The notes beneath the pieces are model-generated. The model had not been told where the DNA came from, ran no database searches, and saw nothing but the letters and a program-made list of their open reading frames with translations. The position numbers were made by a program, and so were the translations under genes. From the NCBI GenBank assembly GCA_038065275.1, contig JBBTRH010000009.1:1-50248 (forward strand): a stretch of DNA of 50,248 nt, read 5' to 3'. Source of the stretch: Patescibacteria group bacterium (GTDB lineage Bacteria; Patescibacteriota; Patescibacteriia; SBBC01; CAIJZX01). Shown piece by piece: positions 8,665 through 26,982 of this stretch; position 1 is the first letter of the stretch; every line of letters begins with the position of its first letter.

Positions 8665-8786
8665 GGCGACAGAGTCCCGCCGTATGGCGGGTTAACCTTC
8701 ACAATACCTGCCCCATATATGTCGAGCGCAACGAGACCTATACGGGATCAATGTGGCGCTCAAACCCGACTGAGCTCATATCCCGC
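8660..8786 (-). pseudogene. Aberrant tRNA-Val-like gene
   Basis: On the minus strand: gcgggatatgagctcagtcgggtttgagcgccacattgat...tgtgaaggttaa-cccgccatacggcggg-actctgtcgcccacca. The D arm and anticodon stem resemble the adjacent tRNA-Val. About 40 nt are inserted in the anticodon loop. The T arm is replaced by a 6-bp tetraloop hairpin. The acceptor strands are not complementary. Confidence 0.5.
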
Positions 8787-8838
8787 TGGTGGGCGACAGA
8801 GGAATCGAACCTCTGACCTCCACAATGTCAATGTGACG
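8787..8838 (-). pseudogene. tRNA-Val 3' fragment (anticodon arm to CCA)
   Basis: cgtcacattgacattgtggaggtcagaggttcgattcctctgtcgcccacca. There is no D arm or 5' acceptor strand; unrelated sequence takes their place. Confidence 0.7.
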
Positions 8839-8871
8839 CCCCGCCCGCTTCGCCTGCGAAAGAAAATCTCT

Positions 8872-8948
8872 TGGTGGGTCCGAGAGGAGTTGAACCTCTG
8901 ACCTCCACAATGTCAATGTGGCGCTCTAACCAACTGAGCTACGAACCC
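8872..8948 (-). tRNA. tRNA-Val (anticodon GAC)
   Basis: The reverse complement folds as gggttcg ta gctc-agttggtta-gagc g ccaca-ttGACat-tgtgg aggtc agagg-ttcaact-cctct cggaccc ACCA. Confidence 0.9.
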
Positions 8949-9173
8949 ATCAGCAGATTTCCTTTAATCTGAAATTTGTGGCTAAATGTACTCGCGAAGC
9001 AGGCGGGCGGGTCTAACTGCCGACAGCTGTCGGCATCCCGCCTGCCTTATTTGTTTTACAGGGGCGGGACAGCTGAGCTAACTGCCCCCCAGCGGGATAC
9101 GAGTTGGAAAGGATTATTACTTTGATAACAGAAACACAGAAACGAGGGTACCATACAGTCCGGCCGACATCAA

Positions 9174-11103: not shown

Positions 11104-11838
11104 CTATCCGTTGTGAATTATGAACTGAAACTTAGCCTGGTCGTCAACGGTCGCTTTCCGCAATCCGGTGACGAGGTTGGCGATCTGCCTCCACCCGCAT
11201 GACGTCCAGTAGTTATCGGTGTCCACCCAAGACGTCCCATTCACCCAGACATCGCGCTGAGCCAGGAACGTTCGGGCTTGCTGCACATCACGGAGCATGC
11301 CGAGGTCGTCCGGTAGCATCAGGCCGGACTTGCGAAGCCCGGTGAAGTGGGCGAAGCGCTCGAACATCTGCGGTAGCTGTTCCTCGGTAGCCATACGATT
11401 CTCGGTTCCCATGAGCAGGTCGTGAACCGTCCAGGGCTGGCGCTCGATTAGCACCCAGGTGTTCCACAGCCAGACCGCGGAGAACCTCTTGGACTCGATC
11501 AGGTCAATCCGACGCCGCATCCATTCCGGCCACGATTCAATCCGACAGGCCTGGTCATGGTGATACTCGGACATGTCAGCAATCGCCTTGGCCTCCCAGA
11601 AACGGATCTGGACTGCCTGCATCAGATGGGCGTACTGACTCTCAATGCCGTTGGGCATTGATGCGACCATGTCAAGGACGGAATGCGTCCGCTTACAGCG
11701 CGAGCACTTGATGGCGTAGTCCTTGACCAACAACTGGTCGCAGAGTCGATCGTTTCCGAGGATCGAGCGAAGGTGGCAACAGCGAATATCTTTTCCAATG
11801 ACGAACAGCATGGGTGAAGCCGCTGATGTGCGAGACAT
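11104..11838 (-). CDS. Hypothetical protein
   Basis: 244-aa ORF with no recognisable motif. It is the only long ORF in this interval. Confidence 0.5.
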   Translation of the reverse strand: MSRTSAASPMLFVIGKDIRCCHLRSILGNDRLCDQLLVKDYAIKCSRCKRTHSVLDMVASMPNGIESQYAHLMQAVQIRFWEAKAIADMSEYHHDQACRIESWPEWMRRRIDLIESKRFSAVWLWNTWVLIERQPWTVHDLLMGTENRMATEEQLPQMFERFAHFTGLRKSGLMLPDDLGMLRDVQQARTFLAQRDVWVNGTSWVDTDNYWTSCGWRQIANLVTGLRKATVDDQAKFQFIIHNG

Positions 11839-12155
11839 GCGGGGCTCCTTTGTAGAAGTATGTCGTGAAAGGTACGGCGTCGCAGTTTGCGACCAGGCAA
11901 CCTAGCACACTTTACAATTGTTGTCAACCCAGGGGTTGAATGGAACGAGCGGGGTTTACTAAGCTCGCCCGGGTCGGATAACGACGCCTTGACCCAGCAC
12001 CACTTTGGCCAAAACAAGAGACTGTTCCCTCGAGCACTAATTACGGGTTAAACATGAGTTATAAATATCCCATGAATTAACCAAAGTGGTGCTGGGTTGA
12101 CCGATCCCACGGTCTCTGATAGAGTCCAGTAGCAATTTTTCATCTTCACCTTAGT

Positions 12156-12473
12156 ATGTCCGAGAACAAACAACAACTCACCGACTTGAAGCCCGGCCAG
12201 ATCGTCCGCGTCCACCAAGCGATCAAAGAAGGCGACAAGACGCGGACCCAGATCTTCGAAGGTTTGGTGATCGCCCTCAAAGGCGGACATGGCGTCAGCG
12301 GAACAGTCACCGTCCGGAAAGTTTCCGACGGAATCGCGGTCGAACGGATCTTCCCGCGCCACTCGCCGTTGTTTTCGAAGGTTGACGTGGTTCGCACCCT
12401 GAGCGTCCGCCGCGCCAAGCTCTACCACTTGCGCCAGCCAAACGCTCGCCAGCCGCGGGAAAAAAAGACCTAA
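12156..12473 (+). CDS. rplS: 50S ribosomal protein L19
   Basis: 105 aa. GQIVRVHQAIKEGDKTRTQIFEGLVIALKGG...RKVSDGIAVERIFPRHSP is the classic L19 signature. Confidence 0.95.
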   Translation: MSENKQQLTDLKPGQIVRVHQAIKEGDKTRTQIFEGLVIALKGGHGVSGTVTVRKVSDGIAVERIFPRHSPLFSKVDVVRTLSVRRAKLYHLRQPNARQPREKKT

Positions 12474-12520
12474 CACAATTTTCATCGGGCAAGCGCGTCA
12501 AAACTTTGCCAGCAACTGGT

Positions 12521-12607
12521 GCGGCCGTGGCGGAACTGGTATACGCGCTAGCTTGAGGGGCTAGTGGTCGCAAGACCGTGGAGGTTCGAGTCCTCTCGGC
12601 CGCACCA
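12521..12607 (+). tRNA. tRNA-Leu (anticodon GAG)
   Basis: gcggccg tg gcg-gaactggtata-cgc g ctagc-ttGAGgg-gctag, long variable arm tggtcgcaagaccgt, ggagg-ttcgagt-cctct cggccgc ACCA. The leader caactggt pairs with accagttg (discriminator, CCA and trailer). Confidence 0.9.
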
Positions 12608-12962
12608 GTTGTTTAGAAAGTGCTAGCTTGCCTGCCCGCCGTAGCTCCGAGCGAAGGCGGAAGGGGCTAGTGGTCGCAAGACCGTGGAGGTTCGAGTCCT
12701 CTCGGCCGCACCAGTTGTTTAGAAAGTGCTAGCTTGCCTGCCCGCCAAAGCTCACCAGAGCGCTAGCGAAGGAGAGCGTCGGCGGGAGGGGCTAGTGGTC
12801 GCAAGACCGTGGAGGTTCAAATCCTCTCGTCCGCACCATTTGCGCATGTCATCGCATGACTGGTCGAGTCCTCTCGTCCGCACCAGCTGTTTAGAAAGCG
12901 CTAGCTTGCCTGTCCGCCGTAGCTCCGAGCGAAGGCGGAAGGGGCTAGTGGTCGCAAGACCT
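12608..12962 (+). repeat. Tandem array of about 3.5 tRNA-Leu 3' fragments, each with a hairpin inserted in the anticodon loop
   Basis: The unit is gttgtttagaaagtG-CTAGC-TTG-[cctgcccgcc...ggcgg(g)a]-(A)GGG-GCTAG-variable arm-T arm-acceptor-CCA. Unit ends fall at 12713, 12838 and 12885, and the last copy is truncated at about 12962. None of the copies has a D arm or 5' acceptor strand. Confidence 0.8.
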
Positions 12963-12984
12963 TGTCCCGCCACGGCGGGATCGT

Positions 12985-13016
12985 CCGCACAAACCGTGAG
13001 GTGCGGTTGTGTTTTT
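12985..13016 (+). terminator. Intrinsic terminator closing the tRNA-Leu region
   Basis: ccgcac-aaaccgtgag-gtgcgg followed by ttgtgttttt. Confidence 0.6.
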
Positions 13017-13042
13017 CGTCCATGGTCTGCTACGATAGCGGT

Positions 13043-13321
13043 ATGTCCGAGGGCCAACACATCGATAGCGAAGACGCTGAACGACCAGGCGTGTTGGCGG
13101 TGAAAACCGAGAATAACCACTTTATTGTCACTGTTCGCTGGGTTGACGGCGAAAAATCGGAACTCCATTTTCCCACTCGCGGTTTTCCGGTCGTGACCCC
13201 GGACACGGGCGATCCACTTGGGCGCTTAACCGGCGAGCAGGCGCTCGAAATTATTCGCCGCGTAGCGGCGGGCAGTATGCGCTCCGAATTCTCCTGGGCT
13301 AAACACATCAAGCGCGAATAA
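13043..13321 (+). CDS. Hypothetical protein (92 aa)
   Basis: ORF 12962..13321. The upstream part overlaps tRNA-derived repeats, so I prefer the start MSEGQHIDSED at 13043. Confidence 0.45.
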   Translation: MSEGQHIDSEDAERPGVLAVKTENNHFIVTVRWVDGEKSELHFPTRGFPVVTPDTGDPLGRLTGEQALEIIRRVAAGSMRSEFSWAKHIKRE

Positions 13322-13397
13322 ACCCCGGCCTCATCCGCGACGCAGAGTCAGGATGGTTTGACGATTGATTATCCGGCTGAACCTTGCTACAATGCGC

Positions 13398-13446
13398 CCG
13401 CCTTCGTCCCGACCGCACAAGTGCGTCGGGACTACGGCGGGCAGGC
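13398..13446. repeat. 49-nt hairpin repeat CCGCCTTCGTCCCGACCGCACAAGTGCGTCGGGACTACGGCGGGCAGGC, copy 1
   Basis: By eye it is identical to 14114-14162 and 37719-37767. It is followed by a second hairpin, cgcccgccgaagacttgttcggcggcag. Confidence 0.85.
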
Positions 13447-13546
13447 CCGCCCGCCGAAGACTTGTTCGGCGGCAGGCAGGTGGTTAGCCCGCCCCGCTCG
13501 CTTCGCTACAAAGATCGAAACTCGACATGATAACTGTGTGAAACCT

Positions 13547-13631
13547 GGGGATGTAGCTCAGTTGGTTACCCCGAACCAATGCTCGCGTTAGCTCGCATGG
13601 TACGGGGCAAGGAGCGCAAAACTTAAAACAG
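13547..13631 (+). pseudogene. tRNA 5' fragment with a 43-nt hairpin in the D loop
   Basis: ggggatg ta gctc agttggtta [ccccgaacc...ggtacggggcaag] gagc g caaaacttaaaaca. It then runs directly into the intact tRNA-Val with no 3' half. Confidence 0.55.
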
Positions 13632-13708
13632 GGGCTCGTAGCTCAGTTGGTTAGAGCGTCTCGTTTACACCGAGAAGGTCCTCCGTTCGAATCGGAGCGG
13701 GCCCACCA
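13632..13708 (+). tRNA. tRNA-Val (anticodon TAC)
   Basis: gggctcg ta gctc-agttggtta-gagc g tctcg-ttTACac-cgaga aggtc ctccg-ttcgaat-cggag cgggccc ACCA. Confidence 0.9.
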
Positions 13709-13729
13709 AGGCATGCTACAATACTGAAC

Positions 13730-13984
13730 ATGAAATGGCTCATCTCCCTGATCGTTATCGCCGTCGGCGCGTTCATGGTCATCAAGACGCAATGGATCTA
13801 TGATTTCACCGGTCCGATCGACTGGGCGGAACAACATCTGGGGACGGAGGGCGGAACGCGGTTGTTCATCAAGTTACTCGGCGTGCTCCTTATTCTCGGC
13901 GCTTTCCTCGGCGTGACCGGCATCCTCGGCAACTGGGTGCTAGCCATCTTCGGTGGGTTTGCCCAGTCATCGTCGGTGCAGTAA
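13730..13984 (+). CDS. Small membrane protein (84 aa, 2-3 TM)
   Basis: MKWLISLIVIAVGAFMVIK...LLGVLLILGAFLGVTGILGNWVLAIFGG is a hydrophobic small ORF. Confidence 0.5.
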   Translation: MKWLISLIVIAVGAFMVIKTQWIYDFTGPIDWAEQHLGTEGGTRLFIKLLGVLLILGAFLGVTGILGNWVLAIFGGFAQSSSVQ

Positions 13985-13987
13985 TTA

Positions 13988-14022
13988 CGGGCCGTTAGTT
14001 CGGCGGTAGAACACCTCATTTG
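13988..14022 (+). pseudogene. tRNA-Ala-like 5' half, broken after TTTG of the anticodon loop (outermost copy)
   Basis: gggccgt ta gttc-ggcggta-gaac a cctca tttg, then tcccgcac... The break position matches the next copy. Confidence 0.55.
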
Positions 14023-14037
14023 TCCCGCACTTTTGGA

Positions 14038-14215
14038 GGGCTGTTAGCCCCGATGTCCGGCGAAGCCGGAATCGGGATCCCGACCCGACATTCTGATGGA
14101 GGCGTCGGGACTCCCGCCTTCGTCCCGACCGCACAAGTGCGTCGGGACTACGGCGGGCAGGCTCGCCCGCCAAAGACTTGTTCGGCGGCAGACAGTTGGT
14201 AGAGCGTCCGGTTTG
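14038..14215 (+). pseudogene. tRNA-Ala(TGC) 5' half with two hairpin inserts in the D arm, broken after TTTG
   Basis: gggctgt ta gc[63-nt cccgat...gtcgggac, 14049-14111]tc[ccgcc...ggcaggc plus a second hairpin, 14114-~14193]agttggta gagc g tccgg tttg | tcccgatt... Confidence 0.7.
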
Positions 14216-14230
14216 TCCCGATTCCTAGAA

Positions 14231-14476
14231 ATGTTTTTCCTCTACATTCTACAGTCGAAAACAGACGGATCATATTACATAGGTTCTTGTGAAAATATTA
14301 CAACGAGGTTACTGTTGCATAATCAGGGAAAGGTGCGATCGACAAAACGCGGATCACCCTGGATGCTGGTATATCAAGAAAGTTTCACCACACGATCAGA
14401 GGCATATGCAAGAGAACAACAAATAAAATCATGGAAAAAGAGAGCGGCCATCGAAAAACTCATTAAACATTTCTAG
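14231..14476 (+). CDS. GIY-YIG nuclease domain protein (81 aa)
   Basis: MFFLYILQSKTDGSYYIGSCENITTRLLLHNQGKVRSTKRG...WMLVYQESFTTRSEAYAREQQIKSWKKRAAIEKL has the GIY...YIG, R and E motifs of small stand-alone GIY-YIG proteins. It is AT-rich compared with its flanks and is bracketed by the 16-bp inverted repeat attcctagaaatgttt / aaacatttctaggaat. Confidence 0.85.
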   Translation: MFFLYILQSKTDGSYYIGSCENITTRLLLHNQGKVRSTKRGSPWMLVYQESFTTRSEAYAREQQIKSWKKRAAIEKLIKHF

Positions 14477-14504
14477 GAATCGTGGATCCTCGATTGCGCC
14501 TGGT

Positions 14505-14580
14505 GGGCCGTTAGCTCAGCTGGTAGAGCGTCCGGTTTGCATCCGGGAGGTCGCCGGTTCGAATCCGGCACGGTCCACCA
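14505..14580 (+). tRNA. tRNA-Ala (anticodon TGC)
   Basis: gggccgt ta gctc-agctggta-gagc g tccgg-ttTGCat-ccggg aggtc gccgg-ttcgaat-ccggc acggtcc ACCA. The G3:U70 identity pair is present. The leader gcgcctggt pairs with accaggcgc. Confidence 0.92.
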
Positions 14581-14593
14581 GGCGCAATCGGGA

Positions 14594-14717
14594 CATCCGG
14601 AAGGTCAGGAGTTTCTGGCGGAGCCGGACCAGGCTCCGCCTGGCGAGCCCGGTAGGGTCCACCCGAATTGTCGGGACATCCGGAAGGTCAGCGGTTCAAT
14701 TCCGCCACGGTCCACCA
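14594..14717 (+). pseudogene. Two successive tRNA-Ala 3' remnants, each starting at CAT of the anticodon loop
   Basis: ...aatcggga|c-at-ccgga-aggtc-agg... (14594-~14665, degenerate). ...attgtcggga|c-at-ccgga aggtc agcgg-ttcaatt-ccgcc acggtcc ACCA (14677-14717). Confidence 0.7.
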
Positions 14718-14721
14718 AAAC

Positions 14722-15071
14722 TGGTGCTGGGTTTTTGCCGAAAACCTGCAACTCGCTACTTAACCCCGCACTATGCCTCGTTACACTCGGCAAATGCGGG
14801 GCAAGGAGGCAGTATCCGTCGCTCACCTGGTGACCCGAGGAGGACTCGAACCTCCAACCCGCTGCTTAAGAGGCAGCTACTCTACCAATTGAGCTATCGG
14901 GCCAGGTGAGCGACGGATTAGATGATCGTCAGCTGCTCCTTGCCCCGCACCGGAGTGGAACTACTGGTGCGGGGTACCAATTGAGTCCCGACGCCTCCAT
15001 CGCGATGTCGGGTCGGGATCCCGATTCCCGAAGTTCGCCGAGCGAATTCGGGACATCGGGGCTAGCGGGCC
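14722..15071 (-). pseudogene. Disrupted outer tRNA-Lys-like gene enclosing the intact tRNA-Lys
   Basis: Minus strand: ggcccgc ta gc[76-nt insert 14985-15060]tc aattggta [ccccgcacc...ggtgcggggcaag 14939-14974] gagc a gctg(a) ... intact tRNA cassette ... (g)cctc[cttgccccgc...gcgggg]ttaag tagcg agtt gcagg ... No proper T arm or 3' acceptor. Confidence 0.55.
14828..14903 (-). tRNA. tRNA-Lys (anticodon CTT)
   Basis: ggcccga ta gctc-aattggta-gagt a gctgc-ctCTTaa-gcagc gggtt ggagg-ttcgagt-cctcc tcgggtc ACCA. Bracketed by 12-bp complementary flanks (14816-14827 / 14905-14916). Confidence 0.9.
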
Positions 15072-15114
15072 GAAGGAGAGTAATAAATTATCGCAAAACG
15101 TGGCAAAAAGCAAG

Positions 15115-15215
15115 CCCCGTTAGAGGCGGTTGAGATTTTGTTTTTGAAAATCTCACCAACCGAGTTGATTAACCAGCTCGTTCCGTAGACTATAGTTCTT
15201 CCGCCTCTAACGGGG
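15115..15215. mobile_element. MITE-like element, CCCCGTTAGAGGCG family, copy c (101 bp, TSD CAAG)
   Basis: ccccgttagaggcgg (15115-15129) pairs with ccgcctctaacgggg (15201-15215). CAAG is present on both flanks. Confidence 0.8.
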
Positions 15216-15259
15216 CAAGCACTCGTAGAAAAATACAATCGTATCTTTCTTTGGCGGCA

Positions 15260-15775
15260 TTATTCGCCCAATAATTCGGATATAACTTGTTCTTTACGGT
15301 ATACCGCACTCTTTTGTTCAACGCTTTCGCCGGCTTTCTCTTTCAATTGTTCCATTTCTACATCAGTAGTGATACCGGAATATTTCTGAAAGAGTGTTCC
15401 CGCATCACGAGCGGAGAGATTAACATCGCCATCAACCGAACCTTCGTAGGTATAAGGGCCCTGATATTCGTAATCCCGATCGAAGTTTAGCGTAACTCTC
15501 GCGAGTTTATTAATGACTACTCTATGACCCTTAACCCTTCCGATGATTGTCTCAGCTGGGTACATATCTTCTTTCAGCTTACCATTATCGTCATACCACC
15601 AAGCGGGAGGCCCATTCTTTATCCATTTTAGGGATCCGTCCTTACCCAGCTCAATGAAACGCTCTTCGCGTTTATTTGAAGCTTCCTTTTCTTTCCATGT
15701 CATCCGTTCACCTGCTTTTTCCATATCCTTAATTTCCTTCTCTGACAACGGGCTTGTTTCTGGTGAATGAGGCAT
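15260..15775 (-). CDS. Hypothetical protein (171 aa), AT-richer patch
   Basis: The only long ORF in a visibly lower-GC segment. No recognisable motif. Confidence 0.5.
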   Translation of the reverse strand: MPHSPETSPLSEKEIKDMEKAGERMTWKEKEASNKREERFIELGKDGSLKWIKNGPPAWWYDDNGKLKEDMYPAETIIGRVKGHRVVINKLARVTLNFDRDYEYQGPYTYEGSVDGDVNLSARDAGTLFQKYSGITTDVEMEQLKEKAGESVEQKSAVYRKEQVISELLGE

Positions 15776-15963
15776 ATAGTTGGAGATTAATTAAAGAAAA
15801 ATTTTCTTTTACCAAAATGTGGTTCGGGCCGATGGATTCGGCGTGGCTCACCACAGGTATTTTTCTCCGGCTTGCCCCGCACCCATGTGGTGCGGGGGTT
15901 CCTTGGCGGTCCTTCGGCAGGCTCAGGACAAGTTTTTGAACGATCGCGGCGGAATCGCCGGCC

Positions 15964-16221
15964 CTACCCCAAAAGAGCAATCTCTTTTTCAGAAACTACG
16001 CCCTTATCGATAAGTACTTGAGCGAGCCTGTCTTGACGGCTCTTGAGGATGGTCAATTCTTGGTGCCATGCCTCGGTGAACTTTAAGTAGCGATCAACAG
16101 AAGATTGGAGGTCAGAGAACTTATCCGTTACCCGTTCCTCAATGGCCATCACATCTTTCTTTGTCGCAAAAACCCGCTTTTGAGCTTCAACGAGTTTTAC
16201 GATATCCTGGTCGGTCAACAT
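15964..16221 (-). CDS. Hypothetical coiled-coil protein (85 aa)
   Basis: Charged, heptad-like sequence in the lower-GC patch. Confidence 0.45.
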   Translation of the reverse strand: MLTDQDIVKLVEAQKRVFATKKDVMAIEERVTDKFSDLQSSVDRYLKFTEAWHQELTILKSRQDRLAQVLIDKGVVSEKEIALLG

Positions 16222-16284
16222 ATTGGCAGACTAGGTTAATAATCATGCCCTGTCAATAGGTTTCGTAAGTGTAGCAGGGCTCGA

Positions 16285-16362
16285 ATGGTTCGACAAGCTC
16301 ACCGCGTCGCCTGCAACCCGCTGCTTAAGAGGCAGCTGCTCTACCAATTGAGCTATCGGGCC
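16285..16362 (-). pseudogene. tRNA-Lys(CTT)-like gene with an insertion in the T loop and no 3' acceptor strand
   Basis: ggcccga ta gctc aattggta gagc a gctgc ctCTTaa gcagc gggtt gcagg [cgacgcggtgagcttgtcgaacca]ttcgagc cctgc, followed by non-complementary sequence. Confidence 0.6.
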
Positions 16363-16365
16363 TTA

Positions 16366-16404
16366 GTGCCTGGGATCAGAATCGAACTGATGACGCCAGC
16401 CTCT
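16366..16404 (-). pseudogene. tRNA-Phe 3' remnant (anticodon stem 3' strand to acceptor)
   Basis: Plus strand gtgcctgggatcagaatcgaactgatgacgccagcctct matches the 3' part of the intact tRNA-Phe, then diverges in the anticodon loop. Confidence 0.7.
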
Positions 16405-16530
16405 TTTTACCCAGCACCGGACCTCGAGCTTGCCGAGAGGGATTGGTGCTGTGGCAGGGCGGGATTCATCCCGCCCAATTCCCTGGTGCCTGGAGTCAGA
16501 ACCCCGCACCAGCCGTGTTCATCTCGCCGG

Positions 16531-16602
16531 TGCCTGGGATCAGAATCGAACTGATGACGCCAGCCTCTTCAGGGCTGCGCTCTACCACTGAGCTACCCAG
16601 GC
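16531..16602 (-). tRNA. tRNA-Phe (anticodon GAA)
   Basis: gcctggg ta gctc-agtggta-gagc g cagcc-ctGAAga-ggctg gcgtc atcag-ttcgatt-ctgat cccaggc A. The acceptor helix is extended by the flanking ccggt/accgg. Confidence 0.9.
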
Positions 16603-16659
16603 ACCGGGAAGACGAACCTATTATCGTGTATTGTAAAGCAGTAAATAATTAACTCTCAA

Positions 16660-16790
16660 ACGGCTGGTACGGGGCAAGTCGAACCGCTAGTTTACCCCGA
16701 GCCGTGTCGAGGGGCCAGCCTCTTTCCGGCGAAGCCGGATCCGGCCATCTGGCCGGACAGGGCTGCGCTCTACCACTGAGCTACCCAGGC
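16660..16790 (-). pseudogene. tRNA-Phe copy with a 33-nt hairpin between G34 and A35 and a degenerate 3' part
   Basis: gcctggg ta gctc agtggta gagc g cagcc ctg[tccggccagatggccggatccggcttcgccgga, 16725-16757]aaga ggctg, followed by hairpin repeats where the T arm should be. Confidence 0.65.
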
Positions 16791-16812
16791 AAGAAACCAG
16801 GGAACTGCACGG

Positions 16813-16938
16813 GACTCTACCACTGCCAGCCCGCCGTAGCGTCAGTGACGGCGGGAGTCCCGACGCCTCCATTGGAATGTCGGGTCGGGATCCCGATTCC
16901 CGATCGCTAGGCGCATCGGGAATCGGGGCTACCCAGGC
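16813..16938 (-). pseudogene. tRNA-Phe 5' fragment with two D-arm hairpin inserts
   Basis: gcctggg ta gc[71-nt cccgatt...gtcgggac, 16857-16927]tc[ccgccgtcactgacgctacggcgggctggc]agtggta gagt... The insert positions match those in the Ala fragment at 14038. Confidence 0.65.
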
Positions 16939-17042
16939 AAGATTCCTTGAAGCTATCCCACGATATAGCAATCAAAGTTTTTTTTCAAGGCCACCGAATG
17001 AGGCGTCCATGATGGACGCCTCACAACCTCGACTTGAACAAT

Positions 17043-17384
17043 TTACATCGCTGGAGTCACCGGCGCGCTGGGCGCAGTCGGAGTTGCCGGAGTTGCCGGC
17101 GCACCGCTCATTTTCAAAGCGTCTTTTAATGATTTACCAGCCTTGAATTTCGGCACGGTCACGGCCGGGATTTGGATTTTCTCGCCCGGTTTCTGGGGGT
17201 TGACGCCCATCCGCGCTTCGCGCCGCTTGGCCATAAACGTTCCGAAACCGGTCAGGGTCACTTCACTGCCCTCCTTGAGAGTGGAGGTGACGACTTCTTC
17301 AAAGGCGTTCAGCATGTCTTCCGCCTGTTTCTTGGTGACGCCGATTTTTTCGGCGACTTTTTCCGCTAATTCGACTTTGTTCAT
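17043..17384 (-). CDS. hup: HU-family DNA-binding protein with a Pro/Ala/Thr-rich C-terminal tail
   Basis: MNKVELAEKVAEKIGVTKKQAEDMLNAFEEVVTSTLKEGSEVTLTGFGTFMAKRREARMGVNPQKPGEKIQIPA is a canonical HU/IHF fold sequence. Confidence 0.92.
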   Translation of the reverse strand: MNKVELAEKVAEKIGVTKKQAEDMLNAFEEVVTSTLKEGSEVTLTGFGTFMAKRREARMGVNPQKPGEKIQIPAVTVPKFKAGKSLKDALKMSGAPATPATPTAPSAPVTPAM

Positions 17385-17444
17385 TCCTCTCACCTCCCTT
17401 CGTATTTCACGATCCGCCTCAGGCGGAGTCGATCGAGTAAATTA

Positions 17445-18230
17445 TTAAACCGTGACGGTGCGCACAATCGGTTCGATGCGCATGCCGGTGTTGCCATCGA
17501 CATCGAGGAGCACTGCGTTGAATCGGACTAAACCGTAGTCGGGGATTTCATTCGGCGCCGGCCGGCCGGTCAGGAAGCGCTGGAGCGCCAGGTCCTTGTC
17601 GACGCCGAGCGACGAATCGCGGAGGCCGACCATGCCGACGTCGGTGATGTAGGCTGTGCCATGCGGCAGGATTCGCGCGTCGGCGGTGGGGATGTGGGTA
17701 TGCGTGCCGAGCACGGCGGCCACCTTCCCGTCAAGATACCAGCCGAAGTTAACTTTCTCGCTAGTGGCTTCGGCATGGATGTCGACAATGATCGTGTCGG
17801 CCGCTGGATGGTCGCGCCACCAGTGTTCCAGGGCGACAAACGGATTTTCCACACCCTCAAGGGATATCCCGAATTCGCCGATAAAGTTTACCACCAGGAC
17901 CGTTTTTTGGCCAACCGTAAAGGTTTTTTGTCCGACGCCGGGGGTGCCGGCCTGGAAATTCATCGGCCTGACCAGGATGTTCGGTTCGACGGCGTAAAGC
18001 TCATTCGCTTCCGGCTTAGCGAAGGTGTGATTGCCGCCGGTGGCGGCTTGCACGCCGGCCTCGGTCAGATCGCGCAAGGTGCTGGTAGTCAGGCCGGCGC
18101 CGTGAGCGATGTTCTCGACGTTAGCGATCACAAAATCCACCCCAAGCTCCTGTTTCAATCCGGGCAAGAGCTGAGCCACAGCCTTACGACCGGGCTTACC
18201 GACGATATCTCCAATGAATAATATTCTCAC
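17445..18230 (-). CDS. ymdB: YmdB-family metallophosphoesterase (TIGR00282-like)
   Basis: (V)RILFIGDIVGKPGR...VIANVENIAHGAGLT...GGNHTF...THTHIPTAD. A GTG start at 18230 is preferred over the upstream ATG. Confidence 0.85.
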   Translation of the reverse strand: MRILFIGDIVGKPGRKAVAQLLPGLKQELGVDFVIANVENIAHGAGLTTSTLRDLTEAGVQAATGGNHTFAKPEANELYAVEPNILVRPMNFQAGTPGVGQKTFTVGQKTVLVVNFIGEFGISLEGVENPFVALEHWWRDHPAADTIIVDIHAEATSEKVNFGWYLDGKVAAVLGTHTHIPTADARILPHGTAYITDVGMVGLRDSSLGVDKDLALQRFLTGRPAPNEIPDYGLVRFNAVLLDVDGNTGMRIEPIVRTVTV

Positions 18231-26505: not shown

Positions 26506-26982
26506 TTACGGCAACTGCGGCGTTGTCGGAGTTGTTTCGGAGACCTGTTTTCCGGCGTAGCCGGATCCGGCTCCGCCGGACTTCGCTTCCCGCTCAAGCC
26601 GTTCCGTCTCAACACGGTCGGCATCAAGGCCGAGGCCCAGACCATTGTCCGCCGCGACCGTGTCCAGGACTTTTGTTATCACCGCCGCTCGTTCGCCGGA
26701 TTCGTCAATCAGGAAAGTCAATTTGGGGACGAACTTCATGACTAACTTTTTGTTAAGCACCGACTGGACATCGCTTATCCGAGAGGTGAGTGAGTCGAGA
26801 ACGTCCTGCTGGTGGAGCGCCGGCAGGACCGAAATCCACACCTTGGCGCTGGCCGCGTCGTCAGCCACGTCGACTTTGCTGACCGTCACGAACGTCCCGC
26901 TGGGGAACTCAATCTCGCGGCTAATGATGGTCGCTACTTCCCGTAGCAACAGGGAGTTCAATTGCTCAACTCGCTGGCCCAT
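26506..26982 (-). CDS. rbfA: Ribosome-binding factor A with C-terminal extension
   Basis: MGQRVEQLNSLLLREVATIISREIEFPSGTFVTVSKVDVADDAASAKVWISVLP. It overlaps the end of infB, as in typical infB-rbfA operons. Confidence 0.88.
   Translation of the reverse strand: MGQRVEQLNSLLLREVATIISREIEFPSGTFVTVSKVDVADDAASAKVWISVLPALHQQDVLDSLTSRISDVQSVLNKKLVMKFVPKLTFLIDESGERAAVITKVLDTVAADNGLGLGLDADRVETERLEREAKSGGAGSGYAGKQVSETTPTTPQLP

Follow-up and report, generated by a model that had tools for sequence, protein, structure and literature searches.

Transfer RNA (tRNA) genes, their anticodon and T-loop regions included, are classic integration sites, as reportedly set out by Williams in 2002. SegB of phages T4 and T6 was reportedly described by Brok-Volchanskaya in 2008 as a free-standing GIY-YIG homing endonuclease encoded in a tRNA gene cluster. 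Here we analyze a stretch of 50,248 nucleotides (nt) from a Patescibacteria group bacterium (contig JBBTRH010000009.1 of assembly GCA_038065275.1, positions 1 to 50,248; hereafter the window), in which a tRNA-Ala(TGC) locus holds an intact tRNA and a small GIY-YIG nuclease gene between the halves of broken tRNA copies. We consider it likely that this locus consists of stacked, successive insertions of a modular selfish cassette system targeting tRNA genes. Phage SegB cleaves tRNA genes, is commonly co-located with tRNAs and gives rise to tandem amplification of tRNA plus segB (PMC13096335). Group I introns occur in bacterial tRNA anticodon loops, as in cyanobacterial tRNA-Leu and tRNA-fMet, some with homing endonuclease genes (PMC3984707), and eukaryotic Dada DNA transposons target tRNA and small nuclear RNA genes (PMC3706591). 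A selfish element that disrupts tRNA genes while bringing along a spare looks undescribed: the original prediction, made from the sequence alone, knew of no bacterial element with this design, and our full-text literature searches likewise found no description of a nested tRNA/nuclease cassette design.

Phage SegB is the nearest functional counterpart. In both cases a nuclease gene lies beside tRNA genes, is spread with neighboring tRNAs, forms tandem repeats with truncated pieces and is associated with many tRNA isotypes. SegB differs in belonging to the I-TevI/UvrC lineage, in which I-TevI-type enzymes carry a DNA-binding domain, and in being larger, phage-borne and not found in cellular genomes. 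It is located between genes, without hairpin or inverted-repeat ends or nested tRNA halves, whereas the window element inserts inside the anticodon, carries a full replacement tRNA and resides in a cellular host.

The working gene of the locus lies at 14505-14580, where ARAGORN called a single intact tRNA-Ala(TGC) (Rfam 68.8 bits) that retains the G3:U70 pair. Upstream of it stand two 5' halves, both stopping at G35, and downstream two 3' halves, both beginning at C36. The nest is composed of the following parts, given in window coordinates, with a caret marking a break within a tRNA.

13989-14022, forward strand: F1, the outermost tRNA-Ala(TGC) 5' half, nt 1-35, GGGCCGTTAGTTCGGCGGTAGAACACCTCATTTG, with terminal ...TTTG (G35)
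14023-14037, forward strand: left arm of an outer cassette lacking an open reading frame (ORF), TCCCGCACTTTTGGA, running straight into the second tRNA copy
14038-14048, forward strand: F2a, nt 1-11 of the second tRNA-Ala copy, GGGCTGTTAGC
14049-14192, forward strand: 144-nt block of ORF-less hairpin units of TCCCGA...TCGGGA type, in the D stem (10^11) of the second copy
14193-14215, forward strand: F2b, nt 13-35 of that second copy, with terminal ...TCCGGTTTG (G35)
14216-14486, forward strand: G cassette, made up of TCCCGATT, arm, GIY-YIG ORF, arm and AATCGTGGA
14231-14476, forward strand: the GIY-YIG ORF, 81 amino acids (aa), PF01541 E = 9e-17
14487-14593, forward strand: T cassette, made up of leader TCCTCGATTGCGCCTGGT (14487-14504), intact tRNA (14505-14580) and trailer GGCGCAATCGGGA (14581-14593)
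14594-14664, forward strand: remnant A, a 3' half from C36, with a 30-nt T-loop hairpin (14614-14643) and a decayed T stem
14665-14676, forward strand: right end of the outer cassette, GAATTGTCGGGA
14677-14717, forward strand: remnant B, the outermost 3' half, nt 36-76, repeat D4

The five items that the original prediction had listed (two 5' halves, a bracketed GIY-YIG gene, a perfect tRNA-Ala(TGC) and a pair of 3' remnants) are all present, with coordinates differing by at most 1 nt. Its derivation of the halves from tRNA-Ala was borne out by alignment to the intact tRNA with shuffle controls, in which 0-10 of 2000 shuffles reached the observed scores. F1 is identical to nt 1-35 of the intact tRNA at 26/35 positions (score reached by 0/2000 shuffles), F2a and F2b spliced together match at 32/35, remnant A minus its T-loop hairpin at 31/41 (10/2000) and remnant B at 35/41 (0/2000). 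F2b alone is identical at 22/23 positions, with an exact BLAST match of 19 nt.

Both inserts break the tRNA between G35 and C36. The inner junctions read TTTG^TCCCGATT...AATCGGGA^CAT, that is, TTTG^TCCCGAT...ATCGGGA^CAT with the inverted ends originally proposed, and the outer junctions read TTTG^TCCCGCA...TGTCGGGA^CAT. Inner and outer junctions therefore agree on the G35/C36 break in both generations and on repeated insertion at one position, as had been claimed. We found no target-site duplication at the TTTG^...^CAT junctions, which restore the tRNA exactly. Dada elements resemble the window element in strict site specificity inside small-RNA genes, tRNA-Ala included, but they have a DDE transposase, target duplications of 6-7 bp, multicopy targets and no replacement gene.

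The nest is not perfectly symmetrical, and its halves do not all belong together. F2 pairs with remnant B in both acceptor stem and anticodon stem, and F2+B together come close to the functional tRNA-Ala found in L065 (L numbers denote comparison loci). F1, however, carries the anticodon-stem strand CCTCA, unpaired with either 3' remnant (strand CCGGA), and its CACCTCATTTG half is the outer half also in L007 and L013. Remnant A has the acceptor strand AGGGTCC of a different allele; over 14648-14663 it shows full identity with the 3' end of Ala(GGC) and with the allele of L001/L035. At least three tRNA alleles are represented in the nest. Because the partners of the F1 and remnant A alleles are absent, the number of generations is at least three and probably four; a more cautious count is at least two and probably three or four. 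In the outer cassette, the left arm finds its partner in GAATTGTCGGGA at 14665-14676; repeat D17, TCGGGACATCCGGAAGGTCAG, is common to this right end and to 14588-14613, and the CACTTTTGGA^GGGCTGTTAGC junction of outer left arm and second copy occurs also in L033. The hairpin block at 14049-14192 comprises repeat families D3, D13, I1 and I2, and TCCCGAY matches are concentrated there. Its D-stem insertion site was used as well at the tRNA-Ala(CGC) locus of the window and in L036 and L065. A promoter scan near the nest returned nothing useful.

Inserts in an anticodon loop might instead be introns removed from RNA, by self-splicing or by an endonuclease at the hairpin base plus a ligase, in which case the outer tRNAs would be functional. 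The position is like that of bacterial group I tRNA introns, with which the window element also shares a possible nuclease ORF and presence/absence polymorphism, and the paired insert ends form helices bringing the exon ends together. In addition, the sole terminator-like site detected by a consensus scan, a hairpin with a T run at 14713-14735, follows the outermost 3' half. However, an Rfam search of 11500-17500 returned tRNAs only, with no group I or group II intron or ribozyme even at E <= 10, and a second complete tRNA stands in place of splicing, making splicing of the outer copy needless. The interrupted copies decay: minus their inserts, they still have T stems that are broken, acceptor or anticodon stems with mismatches, or arms that have been replaced. 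Because they are defective even after removal of all inserts, the outer copies are not under selection, and we rejected them as functional split or intron-containing tRNAs. Arm pairs without G-U, described below, further suggest complementarity at the DNA level. An intron at this locus is highly improbable.

The inner insert consists of two separable cassettes, G and T, each with its own TCCCGAT/ATCGGGA-type ends. Cassette ends take the form TCC(N)CGAT on the left and ATCG(N)GGA on the right, with arms of 10-21 perfectly complementary nt. The arms of the G cassette, whose boundaries were set by a 99%-identity tract common to L120 and L121, form a perfect 18-nt inverted repeat (14219-14236 / 14465-14482, I19) that takes in the ORF's start codon and its last codons. 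The bracketing repeat originally proposed is thus present, but with a length of 18 nt rather than 16 bp. The G cassette is compositionally foreign, with a GC content of 39% and a third-codon-position GC (GC3) of 38%, against 60% GC in the flanks and a GC3 of 79% in the neighboring gene. In the T cassette, leader and trailer lengthen the acceptor stem into a 21-nt inverted repeat (14491-14511 / 14570-14590, 95%, I10), for which the predicted fold is a stem of ~28 bp. In the single-strand fold of 14193-14620, the outer anticodon stem closes a multiloop holding the G and T stems (z = -5.5). ORF-less hairpin units are represented by the D-stem insertion of F2, with TCCCGA...TCGGGA ends, and by the T-loop insertion of remnant A, and tRNA-only and empty cassettes exist, for example at the tRNA-Ala(CGC) locus. 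The prediction of a mobile unit that brings a replacement tRNA gains from the polymorphic sites and recurring design reported below but needs amending, as the system is modular and its nuclease and tRNA cassettes are separable.

Terminal inverted repeats, as in inverted-repeat transposons and MITEs (miniature inverted-repeat transposable elements), are present. Resemblance extends to repetitive extragenic palindromes (REPs) with their REP-associated tyrosine transposases (RAYTs), to MITEs and to IS200/IS605: short hairpin units share a terminal motif with a single flanked protein gene, and ORF-less derivatives outnumber the gene. The absence of target duplication does fit an IS200/IS605- or REP/RAYT-type element. 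However, no DDE-type transposase accompanies the insert, whose sole ORF is the GIY-YIG gene, and no HUH (Y1) protein is present; the window enzyme is a GIY-YIG protein rather than an HUH or DDE transposase. Window units are also confined to tRNA genes and their remnants, some of them carrying a tRNA gene. By its defining features, the window element is not a group I intron, an integrase island, a DDE-type MITE or an HUH hairpin element.

The 81-aa protein has the features that define the GIY-YIG superfamily (PF01541). Residues Y5, Y16, G18, R26, H30 and E62 are invariant across 31 homologues, and an AlphaFold2 model (predicted local distance difference test score 94) has the order strand-strand-helix-strand-helix-helix. 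The closest solved relatives by phmmer against the PDB are the UPF0213 proteins 1zg2 (1.3e-5) and 1ywl (1.3e-4). Foldseek likewise placed 1zg2 first, followed by Slx1 (7cq3_A; TM-score 0.69-0.70, root-mean-square deviation 1.4 A, 71 columns, 32% identity), with I-TevI (TMq 0.57, 16% identity) and UvrC (14% identity) more distant. Modeled structure and sequence thus assign the protein to the Slx1/UPF0213 (COG2827) branch, not to the I-TevI/UvrC lineage. Slx1 and UPF0213 proteins (BH0048, 1zg2; EF2693, 1ywl) give the best sequence and fold matches and have the same catalytic set, although Slx1, together with Slx4, serves in repair as a nuclease of branched DNA. To our knowledge, neither Slx1 nor UPF0213 has ever been linked to mobile DNA or tRNA genes, and we know of no function assigned to UPF0213. 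As the catalytic residues are invariant and the fold is Slx1-like, the protein looks active. The original prediction had called it a plausible homing nuclease: the catalytic set is intact, but the protein is a bare Slx1/UPF0213 domain, and its role in mobility is one that we infer.

This nuclease family is large, with 6984 clusters (each at 50% identity) at E <= 1e-3 and best matches mostly of ~80-130 aa. Proteins encoded between such arms share an MF... start and a ...KHF end, conserved because the cassette arms include the start codon and the last codons. A PHROGs search returned nothing, and an NCBIfam search yielded nothing beyond a weak match, below threshold, to endonucleases of group I introns. 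Relatives in IMG/VR number only three, all at contig ends, and the element does not appear to be phage-borne. We considered the ATCGNGGATCCNCGAT junction beside the cassette ends as a candidate nuclease substrate; exact matches to the junction palindrome ATCGAGGATCCTCGAT in viral contigs are four unrelated coding sequences. The longest ORF within 14096-14476, of 126 aa, begins in the hairpin units and enters the nuclease after crossing the tRNA 5' half. Among database homologues, many have lengths of 100-130 aa with N-terminal extensions, which probably reflect mis-called starts reading through tRNA halves.

The same arrangement recurs in many other genomes of uncultured bacteria. The closest relatives of the nuclease are from Patescibacteria, or candidate phyla radiation (CPR). 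Of 32 homologue-bearing loci in GTDB, 27 have a tRNA on the same strand at a distance of up to ~150 nt and 31 at up to 600 nt; the tRNA comes after the nuclease ORF in CPR loci and before it in Flavobacterium and Acidobacteriota. tRNA halves with the 35^36 break were found in L002 and L011 (Ala-TGC), L003 and L008 (Ala-CGC), L021 (Pro-TGG) and L014 (Glu-TTC). The anticodon loop of tRNA-Ala, which the original prediction named as target, is thus hit recurrently at this position, but so are those of Pro(TGG) and Glu(TTC). In L002 and L011 the outer 5' halves and the inner tRNA show 100% identity. The left side of the CPR tRNA-Ala architecture is 5'half...TTTG^T[CT]CCGAT-x-ATG...stop-x'-ATCGNGGA, and the right side is TCCNCGAT-y-tRNA-y'-ATCGGGA^CA...3'half.

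The G-cassette arms x and x' covary, with compensatory change in 16/22 pairs and pairing in 96% of cells. None of 500 shuffles matched this covariation, and slid registers collapse. Since the covarying arms have almost no G-U pairs, complementarity at the DNA level, or copying of one arm from the other, is favored. The TCCCGAY motif is 4-fold enriched within 400 nt of nuclease genes and 2.7-fold enriched in the tRNA flanks of 81 CPR loci picked without regard to the nuclease, where control hexamers gave 0.8-1.5-fold. These motif counts replaced a generic hairpin scan (any 7-nt arm, TCC or TTC start), in which chance matches dominated and no enrichment stood out clearly. In Flavobacterium, a TCCCGAT-loop-ATCGGGA hairpin replaces the anticodon arm of tRNA-Ala(GGC) remnants beside the nuclease gene. 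Loci of Acidobacteriota and Flavobacterium (L024:2901-3640 and L020:2625-3310) present an intact tRNA, the nuclease gene and then a remnant with a hairpin as its anticodon arm. L024 has this nuclease-plus-remnant unit as a tandem duplicate, and three upstream remnants in L020 carry TCCCGATGAAAAATCGGGA.

Orthologous sites were located by a small membrane-protein gene (13730-13984) and the gene order tRNA-Val(TAC), membrane protein, tRNA-Ala(TGC). We examined ~42 metagenome loci with this anchor gene followed by tRNA-Ala(TGC), and the site is polymorphic, as for a SegB-like element. Its states are distributed as follows.

About 25 loci: clean, compact, fragment-free site, e.g. L041 (Ala, Lys and Phe within 290 nt)
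About 10 loci: remnant-only site, e.g. L034, L035 and L083
4 distinct loci: nuclease between anchor gene and tRNA (L036-39, L065, L081, L105)

The clean loci are the uninterrupted empty sites that the original prediction proposed to look for in related genomes. The closest relative, L033, has the D-stem-interrupted F2 copy and no G cassette before the next tRNA. In L083, an ORF-less hairpin with AT-rich arms sits exactly at the place of the G cassette and, from its sequence, looks like a deletion derivative of it. The tRNA-Ala(TGC) is identical in L001 and L035 and nearly identical in L036, while the membrane proteins of these loci are only 47-79% identical to that of the window, a pattern which may reflect horizontal spread of tRNA alleles.

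One G cassette moved alone, recently and horizontally. An identical nuclease, P0031, occurs in two genomes (L120 and L121) with different neighbors, and the cassettes have 99% DNA identity (3 mismatches in ~290 nt). The identity tract runs precisely from ...CGCATTTG^TCCCGAAATT to ...TTTCGAGGA^; beyond it, identity between L120 and L121 stops within <=8 nt on the left and <=1 nt on the right. Around the cassettes the two genomes differ: their 5' halves agree at only ~80% of positions, their T-cassette leaders show no relationship and their inner tRNAs belong to different alleles. P0030 was also considered as a two-context case, and its contexts proved to be one locus. In the Kaiserbacteria loci L012 and L013, the CCACA and CCTCA anticodon-stem alleles are swapped between inner and outer roles, so the incoming tRNA is not simply a local duplicate.

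These comparisons bear on whether any dedicated mobility is needed. Nested fragments might also arise if REP-like palindromes, which happen to collect in tRNA spacers, promoted local duplication, slippage and gene conversion among tRNA genes: the region is extremely repeat-rich, leader/trailer palindromes surround most tRNAs, and the 100%-identical inner and outer 5' halves of L002 and L011 could be local duplications. Such processes do not readily account for a break at the same nucleotide across genomes and tRNAs, for inner and outer copies that can be different coherent alleles, for a compositionally foreign nuclease cassette or for its 99% identity between genomes with differing flanks. 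We consider an origin by local processes quite unlikely.

Classical integration offers another source of tRNA fragments, namely att-site duplications left by integrase-mediated integration and loss of an island or prophage, and the original prediction had named this scenario as one that would refute it. The window element does resemble tRNA-targeting phages, integrative and conjugative elements and islands in its tRNA target, in the carried tRNA sequence that compensates for the hit and in the remnant arrays left by repeated hits. tRNA genes are the classic sites of such integration, and tandem 3' partial copies follow the tRNA-Leu of the window (D1/D2). At L142:837-1852 a large serine recombinase gene lies directly beside a tRNA-Ala(CGC) nest whose 3' half is unlike that of the otherwise 98%-identical L140; the dead outer tRNA copy there may have served a classical integrative island as attachment site. 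However, Pfam scans of the ORFs in and around the nest found no integrase domain, and those around the tRNA clusters of the window found no integrase or transposase domain. The inserts are just 15-520 bp long, and a complete tRNA stands in the middle. Phages, integrative and conjugative elements and islands use an integrase, carry only the 3' part of the tRNA and leave direct att repeats, whereas the window element carries a whole tRNA, leaves both halves of its target and has inverted-repeat ends. The 5' halves are duplicated upstream as well, which is not a product of integrase crossover. This explanation is already largely refuted and extremely improbable.

A further alternative accepts the cassettes but assigns their movement to another agent, such as a transposase or recombinase encoded elsewhere or recombination of a general kind at palindromes, with the nuclease as captured cargo of repair, defense or toxin-like function. 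T-only and empty cassettes far outnumber nuclease genes, and the nuclease is a minimal domain without a recognizable DNA-binding module. Bacterial Slx1-like proteins were also treated as vertically inherited and non-selfish in the 2006 survey by Dunin-Horkawicz et al. (PMC1564403). Against this stand the co-travel of the nuclease gene with the TCCCGAT/ATCGGGA hairpin across phyla (CPR and Flavobacterium), the reach of the cassette arms into the first and last codons of the ORF, and the movement of the G cassette alone with exact ends. In addition, no transposase or integrase was found in or near the nest. We judge another agent unlikely.

We therefore return to stacked insertions by a modular cassette system as the probable account. 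That the GIY-YIG protein is the mobilizing enzyme, what it cuts, and whether a homing-type repair or a transposition-like reaction on hairpin DNA is at work, we infer rather than observe. The cassettes would be of three kinds: G cassettes with the nuclease, T cassettes with a complete tRNA gene of the target's identity, and ORF-less hairpin units, at least some of which may be deletion derivatives of the G cassette, as L083 suggests. Insertion would take place inside a tRNA gene, mainly at 35^36 and also at 10^11, ~24^25 and the T loop. It would kill the resident tRNA copy, with the T cassette providing a working replacement, so that a single-copy essential tRNA is not lost. Because the replacement has the same anticodon loop, it could be hit again, which would give the nested, Russian-doll arrangement, while the outer halves would later decay and gather more hairpin units. 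Most likely, the nuclease would break DNA at a tRNA-gene site, a cassette boundary or a hairpin base, and the cassette would then be copied in by break repair from an occupied template. Homology-assisted copying fits the observation that the inserted tRNA always shares the identity of its target. Arm pairing would sequester the start codon, probably holding nuclease expression low.

The likeness of the protein to structure-specific nucleases, and the placing of sequence conservation at the element ends and not in the target, point to recognition of DNA shape or cassette ends rather than classical I-TevI-type homing. A more specific version, which we put forward tentatively and hold to be possible rather than probable, is that the system forms a class of mobile DNA not recognized before, in which hairpin-bounded, stackable cassettes are cut and inserted as folded DNA (hairpin or cruciform) by the Slx1-like nuclease, targeting tRNA stem-loops, with the carried tRNA as antidote.

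Several observations weigh against the cassette account. The catalytic domain spans nearly all 81 aa and no appended DNA-binding module is recognizable; for a protein without such a domain, I-TevI/SegB-type sequence-specific homing is unlikely. The window has one GIY-YIG gene in 50 kb, yet remnants at ~8/11 tRNA loci, and T-only or empty cassettes far from a nuclease gene would imply an enzyme acting in trans or remnants that are mostly old. The break position varies, being 34^35 in the Phe and Leu remnants and 35^36 elsewhere. The target tendency is weak, T-N-G^C (TTTG^C, TTCG^C, TTAG^C, AGTG^C), with exceptions at Val, Phe, Leu and Pro. The outer halves are frequently not cognate to one another (the window, L121), which needs extra deletions or lost layers, and the intact inner tRNA would itself be a target, needing tight repression or tolerance of cutting. 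A possible second case of movement, in which the identical protein P0014 occurs in two contexts, shares a 601-nt block between L140 and L142, from the whole 5' half to 5 nt past the cassette end; it was not counted, as the differing 3' half adjoins the serine-recombinase island. Finally, every comparison locus comes from a metagenome assembly, in which repeats may be joined wrongly, although recurrence of the design across independent assemblies argues against an artifact.

Other tRNA loci in the window carry related structures.

~37809-38050: tRNA-Ala(CGC) nest without a nuclease, intact gene at 37933-38007
16366-16791, reverse strand: tRNA-Phe(GAA) nest, intact gene at 16529-16602
12521-12995: tRNA-Leu(GAG) with three tandem partial copies, repeats D1/D2
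16277-16362: tRNA-Lys(CTT) pseudo-copy, Rfam 36.5 bits, with 32 nt in place of the T arm
8700-9100, reverse strand: tRNA-Val(GAC), two calls, the second (8787-8855) of 69 nt only

At the tRNA-Ala(CGC) locus, the order is outer copy GGGCCGTTAG, two hairpin units at 10^11, CTCAGTTGGTAGAGCGTCGCATTCG, T cassette and truncated 3' half, with the T cassette between G35 and C36 of the outer copy. The tRNA-Phe gene is accompanied upstream by a 100%-identical copy of nt 1-33 and downstream by a copy of nt 34-73; the upstream copy has tandem mini-hairpins TCCGGCCAGATGGCCGGA and TCCGGCTTCGCCGGA between G34 and A35. A twin mini-hairpin at 26551-26580, TCCGGCGTAGCCGGA TCCGGCTCCGCCGGA, closely resembles this pair, with no tRNA nearby, and may fall in a coding region. 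Each tRNA-Leu partial copy consists of an anticodon-stem piece, a 31-nt hairpin (CCTGCCCGCC...GGCGGA) after G34 and a tRNA 3' part. The intact tRNA-Lys lies at 14828-14903, separated from its pseudo-copy by a 1.4-kb AT-rich stretch (GC 45%) whose ORFs at 15260-15775 and 15964-16221 (minus strand) have no Pfam match; a tRNA-Lys-like 5' fragment with hairpin units is found at 14983-15071. Near tRNA-Val(GAC), Val-like 5' fragments are broken by TCCCG...CGGGA hairpins, one of them at ...CACATTGA^TCCCG, 35^36. An 88-nt composite of hairpin units at 13397-13484 is 95% identical to 14113-14200, and a Val-like tRNA 5' fragment (GGGGATGTAGCTCAGTTGGTTA) at 13547-13568 lies upstream of the intact tRNA-Val(TAC). 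Leader/trailer inverted repeats extend the acceptor stems at 14814-14918, 16517-16617 and 12486-12638, the one at tRNA-Lys being perfect over 17 nt. These repeats suggest that many tRNA genes of the window sit in T-type cassettes, and 23/31 TCCCGAY sites in the window fall inside the two tRNA clusters.

If the cassette account is true, selfish DNA can colonize an essential single-copy tRNA gene by means of a complete spare, without splicing, and the nested hits form a readable fossil record. A very small nuclease with defined specificity for a hairpin or a tRNA gene would be a possible tool. The account also provides a testable role for stand-alone bacterial Slx1/UPF0213-type GIY-YIG proteins, for which we know of no established role since their first structures in 2005. 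Should the folded-DNA version be true, such elements would have their nucleases in thousands of stand-alone GIY-YIG proteins of this kind from CPR, Bacteroidota and Acidobacteriota. The cassette account would also mean that tRNA alleles move between lineages, and it would account for CPR tRNA loci crowded with fragments and palindromes, which mislead tRNA finders and gene callers.

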